From Nitrospirota bacterium (GTDB lineage Bacteria > Nitrospirota > Nitrospiria > Nitrospirales > Nitrospiraceae), in the NCBI GenBank assembly GCA_963701855.1, contig CAVPBK010000009.1, positions 448,001-512,000 of the forward strand: DNA of 64,000 bases, given 5' to 3'. The notes under the pieces were generated by a model. The model was not told where the DNA came from, did no database searches, and worked only from the letters and a program-made list of their open reading frames with translations. A program made the position numbers and the translations under genes. Each line of letters begins with the position of its first letter. The stretch's first letter is position 1. Shown in pieces: positions 59,705-61,110 of this stretch.

Positions 59705-59891
59705 GGATCTTCTAACGGCGAGGAGCGTGCCTCTCCGCTGAAGGGCCGCACCGACGTCCGATGGTGCCACGCCATTGACCTGCCCCCAAGTGTTAGGCCA
59801 CCGGTTCAGTTCGCTTACGCCGGGAATGGTCGGCTGGAATCCTGGCTCCAGATCCGACCTGGTTTAAAGGGGGCAGCAACTGTCTTGGTTG

Positions 59892-60839
59892 TCAAGCACA
59901 CTGAACCAGTTCTGTGCGCCATGGGGTCCGATGTTTCAGCATCGCATTCAGAATGATCAGCAGCTTCCGCATACAAGCGGTCAGTCCCACCTTCTTCGTC
60001 TTGCCCGCGGCGCGCAGGCGTTGGTAGAACGCACGTATGACAGGATTGAAGCGCGCCGCCACGAGCGCGGCCATATAGAGCACGGCCCGGATCTGCGCCC
60101 GGCCGCCCCAGACCGTGCGCTTCCCGCGCAATGTCCCGCTGTCACGATTCAGTGGGGCCACCCCCACCAGCGCGGCAATCTGTTTGCCGGGCAACGTGCC
60201 AAGTTCCGGCAGCGTCGCCAGCAGCGTCGTCGTCACCACGGGCCCCACCCCGGGTGCGCTCCGCAAGAGCGCCTCCTTCTCACGCCACACGGGACTCTCC
60301 CGAATCGCCTGGGCCAAGCCGCGGTCCGTGTGGCTCAATTCCCGCTCGAGCCAGGCAATGTGGGTGCGCAGGCTCTTGCGTACCGGCTTGCCAGCCATCC
60401 CCAGGCGGTTCTTCTCCGCCGTCAGCATCTCGACGAGTTGCCGGCGACGCGTCAGGATCGCCGCCAGTGCCTGGGTCTGCTCATCCGGCAGGGGTCGCGG
60501 CTCCGGTCGCATGACCTCGGCGAAGTGCGCCAACGTCTGGGCGTCCAACGCATCGGTTTTGGCGAGCCGCCCGGTGGCTTTGGCGAAGTCGCGCACCTGT
60601 CGCGGATTGACCACGACGACCGGCACCCCGGCGGCGGCCAATACCGCCGTGAGCGGACTCTCCACCCCGCCGGTGGCTTCCAACACCACCAGCGTGGGGT
60701 GCACGGCGTTCAGACGTTCGAGCACCTGAGCAAATCCGGCCTCGTTGTTGGGAGCGGAGAACTGCCCCTCCGGTCGGAGGGCGAGGTCCAACTGCGCCTT
60801 GGAGATATCAATACCGACAAAGACCTGAGTACTCGTCAT
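59892..60839 (-). CDS. IS110 DEDD recombinase/transposase
   Basis: VGID, LEATG and KTDALDA (DEDD), plus DSG serine loop; AAGGAGG RBS; 315 aa uninterrupted. Confidence 0.95.
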
Positions 60840-60851
60840 CACGTCCTCCTT

Positions 60852-61012
60852 GGTGGCCCGGCCTTGCATGATACGGGCTCAATGGCCCACGCAACTGTTC
60901 GGGCTCGTTCCGTAGAAGGGCATGACGACCCTCGCTGCCCCACGGTCTTTGAAGACCTCGGTCACGTCGGTCTATCATGCCCGGGTTGATGATAAGCTGT
61001 ATCATTGTCGCC
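60852..61012 (-). ncRNA. IS110 bridge RNA (ends approximate)
   Basis: 5' hairpin; target-binding loop with guides ACGTGACC and GGGGCAG closed by gggcatga/tcatgccc; donor-binding loop with guides ACAGTTGC and ATGCAAG. Confidence 0.85.
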
Positions 61013-61110
61013 TTGGGCGCAAGATACAAGGTCACTTTCCCAATGGACTCCGCTTGCGCGCGTTTCAGGTCCACGAACTGCGTAAGAGGGCCACTCATAC
61101 CAGTTGAGTG

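Follow-up and report, generated by a model that had tools for sequence, protein, structure and literature searches.

The 64,000-nucleotide stretch analysed here, called the window below, comes from a Nitrospirota bacterium (assembly GCA_963701855.1, hereafter G000; contig CAVPBK010000009.1, C9:448001-512000) and carries, at 59877-61030 on its minus strand, an insertion sequence (IS) of the IS110 family that sits within the terminal inverted repeat (IR) of a relic of an IS3-family element. Besides the gene of its recombinase, the IS110 element contains a region predicted to fold into a bridge RNA, the guide RNA of this family, whose guides correspond to the tip of the interrupted repeat. The features of the locus, with IRL and IRR denoting the left and right inverted repeats of the IS3 host and LE and RE the left and right ends of the IS110 element, are as follows.

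59776-59820, minus strand: IS3-family fragment of the IRR end; its tip TGACCTGCCCCC is unoccupied, and it holds the last codon and stop (GCG TAA) of a lost orfB
59821-59828, no strand assigned: joint CGGGAATG (plus-strand letters), 8 bp between the BLAST-matched IRR and IRL blocks, matching neither end type; scar left by the internal deletion
59829-59876, minus strand: inner fragment of the IRL end, same IS3 type as above; 48 bp with 93.8% identity to the uninterrupted IRL at C6:1288950-1288997
59877-61030, minus strand: IS110-family insertion sequence of 1,154 bp, the CT core being counted once; four copies with the same ends in G000
59890-59895, minus strand: TTGACA, 13 nt from the RE end
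59892-60839, minus strand: transposase (bridge recombinase) gene, 315 aa; stop at 59892-59894, ATG at 60837-60839, AAGGAGG upstream
60856-60904, minus strand: predicted second (donor) stem-loop with the donor guides
60863-60869, minus strand: right donor guide AUGCAAG, complementary to CTTGTAT with one G-T wobble
60891-60898, minus strand: left donor guide ACAGUUGC, equal to the RE end
60918-60982, minus strand: predicted first (target) stem-loop with the target guides, from a 44-sequence consensus fold and the covariation of guides with flanks
60935-60941, minus strand: right target guide GGGGCAG
60959-60967, minus strand: left target guide ACGUGACCG, effective part GUGACC at 60960-60965
61031-61034, minus strand: split-off outermost 4 bp of the IRL (TGAC on the minus strand), the left target half

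The IS110-family element and its copies

The element is devoid of terminal inverted repeats: its ends, CTTGTATC... and ...ACAGTTG, are not inverted repeats of each other, and the end sequences CTTGTATC... and ...AAGACAGTTG are kept in relatives. A 2-bp CT core is present at both junctions in all four copies of the genome (4/4) and in the relatives, so that the boundary is ambiguous by 2 bp and the element consists of 1,152 bp plus one core copy. The recombinase combines the two domains of the family, DEDD (RuvC-like) at the N-terminus and Tnp at the C-terminus, as the 325-aa open reading frame (ORF) matches the Pfam profiles DEDD_Tnp_IS110 (PF01548, 1.4e-28, residues 18-156) and Transposase_20 (PF02371, 3e-19, residues 200-283). 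G000 contains four copies that are 99.7-100% identical, three of which retain the full ORF.

C9:507877-509030: the window copy, 1,154 bp
C6:360710-361863: 2 substitutions
C12:13247-14400: 3 substitutions
C13:97316-98471: 2 bp longer; ORF shortened to 258 aa

All four copies are flanked by GGGGGCAG on one side and GTCA on the other, and a homologous end without insertion, ...GGGGGCAGGTCA, lies at C6:1288997. Owing to these four-copy flanks and to the uninterrupted end, the boundary of the IS does not depend on the reading of the rejoined repeat. An 87-bp left-end remnant of a 92% identical IS110 copy is found at C9:211610-211696, still adjoined by GTCA, while the remaining element and the other half of the site have been lost from this locus (C9:211610-211700). 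Two of the insertion loci, L001 (C12:1-20000) and L004 (C6:357500-365000), are clusters of IS debris. In L004, a complete IS3 element lies 500 bp away from the IS110 copy, and this copy adjoins an IRL fragment of 57 bp that is joined to a second, truncated IS3. L001 contains three solo ends of the IRR type in which the core has become TT, as well as a 72-bp IRL fragment and a second, frameshifted gene of the IS110 family (19117-19983).

The host sequence is a relic of an IS3-family element

The sequence-only reading of the window had proposed that excision of the IS110 element restores a perfect inverted partner of the 12-mer at 59776, and that the two repeats bound an element of about 105 bp with TG...CA ends and an orfB-like GCG-TAA tail. 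These claims are borne out. TGACCTGCCCCC lies at 59776-59787, GGGGGCAG at 59869-59876 and GTCA at 61031-61034, and the last two, once rejoined, form the exact reverse complement of the first; 59776-59876 plus the 4 split-off bases makes 105 bp with TG...CA ends and TGACCTGCCCCC at both termini. In this arrangement, GGGGGCAG represents the right target half, CT+GCCCCC, in reverse complement. GTCA also adjoins the LE in soil-metagenome contigs, which diverge only after 61034-61036.

Both parts of the relic are tied to IS3-family genes. The IRR part (59776-59820) is 84-89% identical to the IRR-type ends at C6:1525166, C12:12506, C12:11319 and C11:585, and it matches the IRR of the full-length element L139 described below. 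The end at C6:1525166 closes an ORF (...ALGYRPPAPETCTFAPVSVSA-stop) at the position of the window GCG-TAA, and this ORF matches the C-terminus of the intact IS3 orfB at C9:171210-172423 (12/17 identical residues, E 4e-07 in a two-sequence search), which confirms the proposed tail. The inner IRL part (59829-59876), aligned to verified IS3 ends beyond the 8 nt that the guides dictate, scores 34 against a shuffle maximum of 14. At the uninterrupted IRL of C6:1288997, TGACCTGCCCCC is followed by about 50 bp, a ribosome-binding site and the orfA start MARKRYTAEEIIGHL, and the sister IRL copy at C5:917 runs into a 92-aa orfA with a match to Pfam HTH_Tnp_1 (PF01527, 2.6e-15). This orfA is 71-73% identical to that of the complete IS3-family element at C6:359028-360200, in which HTH_Tnp_1 is accompanied by rve, rve_3 and HTH_21.

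Uninterrupted copies, which the sequence-only reading had suggested looking for, exist in two forms, the empty end at C6:1288997 and, in a sister genome, the full-length L139 (G036:C241:918-2144), a 1,227-bp element bounded by both end types. Its tips, TGACCTGCCCCC at the IRR and TGACCTGCCCCT at the IRL, both match the 11-nt target specified by the guides (see below), and the orfA and orfB frames lie between its ends, decayed by in-frame stops in orfB. Because both end types bound this one 1,227-bp element, the 105-bp host is, judged from its sequence, an internal-deletion relic of such an IS3 element, made of about 52 bp of IRL, the 8-bp joint and 45 bp of IRR, with orfA and orfB both deleted. 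No target-site duplication of the 3-5 bp usual in the IS3 family is seen around either (flanks CCAT/CTTT in the window and AAAG/GCAT at L139); 4-bp target duplications are reported for IS407A. In the window, the outer edge of the IS3 tip is also the exact starting point of a 66-bp repeat (61035-61100), which is 91% identical to C12:3878-3943, a copy with no IS3 end beside it.

The tip itself is shared with named IS3-family elements. The IS407A inverted repeat, given as 'TGACCTGCCCCCT ... AGGGGGCAGGTCA' in Table 2 of PMC2877748, has the same 12-mer tip, as do the IRL and IRR of ISPa32 in a table of PMC7378034, and the annotated ISMdi16 has TGGCCTGCCCCC at both ends. The possibility that the 12-bp repeat matches no IS3 element, which would have undone the earlier interpretation, is removed by these matches, and TG...CA terminal repeats of the IS3-family kind are common to the relic, to L139 and to the named elements. 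Chance is excluded as the origin of the repeat, since 0.93 occurrences of the 12-mer are expected per genome on both strands and G000 has 7 intact ones and 4 split by the IS.

The bridge RNA and its guides

The guide-bearing region was compared across relatives: 563 transposase relatives were confirmed by tblastn, and 80 loci with 56-86% identity, mostly from Nitrospira-type genomes, were kept. Their ends were found through the conserved CTTGTATC and ACAGTTG-CT motifs, and the left ends of 51 relatives in which both junctions were found were aligned. The 191 nt from the left end of the window element to its start codon fold with a minimum free energy z-score of -3.78 relative to shuffled controls, and the RNAalifold consensus of 44 non-identical sequences consists of two stem-loops, each with an internal loop. 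Of its 27 pairs, 14 show compensatory double changes, reaching 19 double-changed sequences out of 44 at one pair of the basal stem of the first loop. An Rfam 15 scan of 59500-61400 returned sub-threshold matches only (an antisense sX15 and mir-306). The weak match to sX15, a Xanthomonas small RNA, covers 60836-60994 on the plus strand, antisense to the bridge RNA (30.1 bits against a gathering score of 55, E 0.014), and sX15 may itself derive from the left end of an IS110-type element.

The window guides specify the effective target (G)TGAC-CT-GCCCC, and the 3' side of the first loop, read as its reverse complement, has the form G-CT-NNNNN-ACGG in the relatives. The relation between guides and targets was assessed by covariation over 48 distinct guide/target combinations with 1000 shuffles. 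The five non-core positions of the right guide equal the element's own flank at frequencies of 0.81-0.98 versus 0.33-0.42 in the shuffled pairs, and positions 3-7 of the left guide at 0.54-0.85 versus 0.24-0.61, so that the own-target score averages 7.81 matches out of 10 against a shuffled mean of 3.54 and maximum of 4.35. Left-guide positions 1-2 were considered as guide bases and discarded for the clade (identity 0.27 and 0.12 versus 0.27 and 0.25 shuffled). Moreover, the base that follows GCAAG in the window is a G complementary to target position 7, and Watson-Crick complementarity of this base to target position 7 holds in 40 of 47 distinct cases (shuffle mean 29.8, maximum 36).

The earlier statement that the bridge RNA is directed at the terminal repeat of another transposon thus finds support on both sides: the target loop matches the IS3 tips, and the IS110 copies sit in such tips. 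The string (G)TGAC-CT-GCCCC is identical at the left and right ends of the IS407-like IS3 group. Its further argument, that the occupied repeat matches the left guide at 6/7 and the unoccupied one at only 4/7, was counted correctly (ACGUGAC versus AAGTGAC and CATTGAC) but is not supported as an explanation of occupancy, because left-guide positions 1-2 do not covary with the flank; for the same reason, the two window ends really differ by a single base, G versus T before TGAC. The 17 distinct TGAC sites have G at this position 8 times, C 5 times, A 3 times and T once, so that G is favoured without being required and T, as at 59775, is tolerated.

The observations reported here directly support the anatomy of the element, the folding of its RNA, the covariation of guides with targets, the identity of the sites and the assignment of the flanks to IS3, and the element has the IS110-family bridge-RNA features for which it was tested: the two domains, the absence of terminal inverted repeats, the CT core, a two-loop RNA and covarying guides.

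Distribution of elements with the same guides

In the genome of the window, 4/4 copies occupy the site that the guides specify. A 95% identical, internally deleted copy in the sister genome G007 lies between CCCTGAC and CTGCCCCC, the latter followed by IRR-type sequence. Public collections scanned for the exact guide pair yielded 2 genome loci and 14 metagenome loci; among these 16, the G007 copy appears as L118 and a related strain's C13 site as L127. TGAC precedes the LE in 13 of the 16, and CTGCCCC starts the RE flank in 5 of the 7 in which that flank is visible. The three loci without TGAC are L119 (CCAC), L120 (TGGC) and L130 (GATC).

Whether the flanks belong to IS3 ends was judged beyond the target itself: the first 8 flank bases were dropped, the next 54 were aligned to a set of ten IS3 ends, all linked to transposase ORFs, and 300 shuffles were run for each. 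IS3 resemblance is found in 7 of 11 readable flanks (p<=0.01), namely those of the own C9, C13 and C6 copies, G007, L126 and L130 (p<=0.003) and the own C12 copy (p<=0.01). The RE flank of L130 contains an IRL followed by about 14 codons of orfA; no intact IS3 gene lies within the 743- and 742-bp RE flanks of L130 and L133. On the RE side of the C9, C6 and C13 copies, 40-60 bp are 88-94% identical to the uninterrupted end at C6:1288997. The insertions are independent, as the IS copies differ by <=0.3% and the adjoining IS3 ends, which belong to three types, are 84-94% alike. Since the specified string comprises the outermost 11 bases of the IS3 repeats and is the same at both ends, copies land 4-6 bp inside IS3 ends, and their transposase gene always points into the IS3 element.

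The association of homologues with IS3 repeats, for which the sequence-only reading had proposed a test of enrichment, is seen among the same-guide elements, in the 7 of 11 flanks just given, and does not extend to the 80 relatives. These have other targets, and an IS3 orfB is found near only one of the 80 loci (L045); targeting of IS3 ends is therefore a trait of this one lineage and not of the family at large. The nearest relatives, L009, L011, L088 and L106 (77-83% DNA identity), have guides that differ from those of the window at only three effective positions and sit in a REP-like palindrome (REP, repetitive extragenic palindromic element), GAAAAGTAGC-CT-GTCCCCTTTTC. This palindrome is a REP-like repeat found in Nitrospira-type genomes, and L106 has an intact copy of it at a distance of 60 bp from the insertion.

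Interpretation and alternatives

Taken together, the data make it very likely that 59877-61030 is an IS621-type IS110 element, probably active, whose guides specify the 11 terminal bases of IS407-like IS3 inverted repeats. The element would excise as a circle, in which the joining of RE to LE would set TTGACA 17 nt upstream of TATCTT (61021-61026) as a putative junction promoter that may drive transcription of the LE. The LE RNA would then fold into its two stem-loops, each with an internal loop, the donor loop would pair with the joined ends of the element (ACAGTTG-CT-TGTAT), and the recombinase would exchange strands at the CT core. We infer this cycle, and with it the activity of the element and the circle promoter, on the model of published work on IS621. 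A repeated, gene-free landing site may benefit the element, and insertion may harm the IS3 host.

Several observations weigh against this interpretation. At the level of the guides, positions 1-2 and 9 of the window left guide mismatch the target. At the level of the sites, L120 (TGGC) and L130 (GATC, CTGCTCCC) are imperfect, and L119 (CAWGSC010000025.1:1-2079) has exactly the window guides and yet occupies CGCCAC-CT-GTCTAC, the kind of site used by another relative (L089, L115); the insertion may have gone off target, or elements may have exchanged their guide regions. The RE flanks of L119 and L129 do not resemble IS3, and those of L124 (p 0.18) and L133 (p 0.13) resemble only the own C12 flank, not significantly. 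The 56-86% identical relatives with their other targets also count here, as do the 7 exact 12-mers of G000 that are unoccupied, of which the one at C12:6284 has a full 12-nt guide match. As for mobility, parts of the stretch are present in 20 public-run rows, of which the RNA runs carry only small shares, and contigs of 4 soil runs (X1, X2, X4, X7) contain neither an excision joint across 59877-61030 nor a circle junction; these contigs, which gave only fixed junctions and empty ends, are unable to reveal rare forms. The single joint found in them, a skip of 60215-60462 in one X2 contig with 24 nt on its shorter side, is not interpretable.

A first alternative retains the mechanism and changes only the evolutionary reading: the 12-nt string would merely be what the guides specify, IS3 tips would be its commonest carriers, and neither adaptive programming nor any consequence for IS3 would be involved. 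The insertion of L129 at the string outside recognisable IS3 ends agrees with this, as do the state of the occupied IS3 ends, all of them dead relics, the lack of targeting of what seems to be the commonest IS3-type end of the genome (tip TGACCTTCCCCC, on at least 10 ends), and the close relatives that target a REP-like palindrome instead. However, at 0.93 chance occurrences per genome, a lineage with four copies here and a presence in many soil samples could not spread without a repeated carrier, and IS3 ends are recognised in 7 of the 11 readable flanks; on balance, we consider this alternative quite improbable.

It is far less probable that the IS110 element and the adjoining IS3-like segment of 50-60 bp form one composite mobile unit, with flanks shared by descent, a proposal already largely refuted. 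An IRL-type segment does lie on the RE side of 3/4 own copies (C9, C6, C13), but identity among these segments is 88-94%, against at least 99.7% among the IS copies, and the C12 copy, the G007 copy and L126 adjoin different end types. Furthermore, IRL ends are uninterrupted at C6:1288997 and in metagenome contigs that continue with GTCATGCT... right after 59876, and the RE end ...ACAGTTG-CT is kept in relatives with unrelated flanks. Lastly, a mobile miniature inverted-repeat transposable element (MITE) of the IS3 family, with the IS110 element as a passenger spreading with it, is suggested by the perfect 12-bp terminal inverted repeats, TG...CA ends and MITE-like size of the 105-bp unit and is barely credible, as the composite of IRR and IRL is single-copy in G000, its halves recur only separately, the flanks CCAT and CTTT are no target duplication, and the other three IS110 copies lie outside such a unit. 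The identification of the unit as a MITE was accordingly rejected on copy number and target duplication.

Occupied and unoccupied ends and a possible conflict between transposons

The favoured interpretation, an IS110 element programmed for IS3 tips, raises the question of what insertion does to the IS3 host, which the sequence-only reading had answered with immobilisation. No transposase gene adjoins any occupied end with readable surroundings; as every such end is already a relic, nothing is left to immobilise in this material. In the G000 assembly, the exact tip occurs on relics only, at 4 occupied and about 5 unoccupied IS3-like ends, and no intact IS3 copy with the 12-mer tip was found in this genome. 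Conversely, inward-facing tip pairs of IS3 size, three clear ones with identical tips and one with differing tips, are all unoccupied.

C5:250033-251251: size-intact inward-facing IS3 tip pair, unoccupied
C9:171210-172423: size-intact inward-facing IS3 tip pair, unoccupied
C12:29075-30254: size-intact inward-facing IS3 tip pair, unoccupied
C6:1167182-1168432: IS3-size tip pair with differing tips, unoccupied; possibly includes one of the at least 10 ends bearing TGACCTTCCCCC AATTCC...

The tips of the size-intact pairs (TGACCGGCCCCC, TGACCTTCCCCC, TGACCCTCCCCC) are altered at the core or at the first right-target base and mismatch the guide. In addition, G036, the genome with the full-length, decayed L139, gave no match to the window IS110 element. 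These patterns would fit an RNA-guided conflict between transposons, in which the guide tracks one allele of the IS3 tip, insertion disables the IS3 element, and the surviving IS3 lineages are escape variants. We regard such a conflict as unlikely on the present material, which comprises 3-4 intact IS3 lineages in a 15-contig assembly broken at repeats, within a family in which tip variation is widespread.

Neighbourhood of the insertion

The gene beside the IS110/IS3 site, at 61111-62170 on the minus strand, encodes an outer-membrane phospholipase A (Pfam PLA1) and is split over at least two ORFs or frames. One piece covers 61111-61524 (profile 155-257) and another 61670-62170 (profile 3-66), while a third frame at 61379-61582 holds the motif HQSNG; the gene is probably a pseudogene. 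Further along, about 62452-63301 is an insertion sequence of some 850 bp, a decayed IS5-like copy whose terminal repeats (CTAGAACCT and TCTCAAAATTG, 21/23) are near-perfect; it has a DDE_Tnp_1 ORF at 62474-62938 and in-frame stops in its upstream part. On the other side of the relic, 58876-59275 and 59324-59704 are two small ORFs, paralogous and in tandem, that have lipoprotein-like signal peptides and share an ...ARELEAEA.EYE... core; the second has no Pfam match. A scan of 62000-64000 for tRNA genes found none.

Relation to known systems and significance

One close parallel is IS621 of Escherichia coli, a member of the IS110 group. As described in PMC11208160 and PMC11208158, its left guides pair with the bottom strand and its right guides with the top strand, core included; extension of the right guide from 4 to 7 nt is possible, the right donor guide is followed by a handshake base, and the wild-type target is an 11-bp sequence of a REP element, ATCAGGCCTAC. 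The window element resembles IS621 in its recombinase with DEDD and Tnp domains, in the CT core, in the LE RNA with target and donor internal loops, in the strand geometry and core inclusion of its guides and in the handshake-type base, a likeness drawn from the published descriptions. Unlike IS621, it is aimed at the tip of an IS3-family inverted repeat instead of a REP element, its right target guide has 7 nt versus 4 in wild-type IS621, and its last left-guide base is a G opposite the core T.

Targeting of the ends or bodies of other mobile elements is already established for the IS110/IS1111 superfamily. IS1383 of Pseudomonas putida H is said, in work attributed to Muller, Lauf and Herrmann (2001), to target specifically the inverted repeats of IS1384, and the window element likewise belongs to the IS110/IS1111 type and has the inverted repeats of a different insertion sequence as its specific site of integration. 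It differs in host IS and bacterium, and the IS1383 work predates guide RNAs. Similarly, IS4321 and IS5075 reportedly target the terminal repeats of the Tn21 family. With the window element they share site- and orientation-specific insertion in the terminal repeat of another transposon and a repeated, gene-free landing site, and nearly 900 insertions of IS4321 are reported. They belong, however, to the IS1111 group, with subterminal inverted repeats, a seekRNA and hosts of the Tn3 family, whereas the host in the window is an IS3 element.

Within the IS3 family, the natural target of ISEc21 lies inside the elements ISCfr6, ISEc92 and ISEc93, at the codons surrounding the DDE motif's second D (PMC11187229). 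ISEc21 is likewise an IS110-family element with an upstream guide region and a target within IS3-family elements, but what the window element hits is the 11 bp at the very tip of the inverted repeats, which makes targets of both ends, even those of gene-less relics. REP elements, for their part, are the targets of both IS621 and ISPpu9. On the host side, the IS3 elements concerned share with IS407A and ISPa32 inverted repeats that begin with TGACCTGCCCCC(T), TG...CA ends and the orfA/orfB layout (PMC2877748 and PMC7378034), while the Nitrospira-type L139, of 1,227 bp, is only distantly related to them in sequence. In open-access papers and bioRxiv preprints, the scope of a search that left subscription papers and ISfinder outside, no published IS110-family element aimed at IS3-family repeat tips was found.

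The case described here leaves the understanding of the mechanism unchanged. It adds the tips of IS3 inverted repeats to the targets of IS110/IS1111 elements, alongside REP elements, attC sites, Tn21 repeats, IS1384 repeats and IS3 transposase codons, and it provides a clean natural example of how two short bridge-RNA guides put an IS110 element on a repeated, harmless landing site. As a natural guide/target pair with a 7-nt right guide, it is useful for work on bridge recombinases, and the reading of one transposon acting against another would, if true, be of wider interest.

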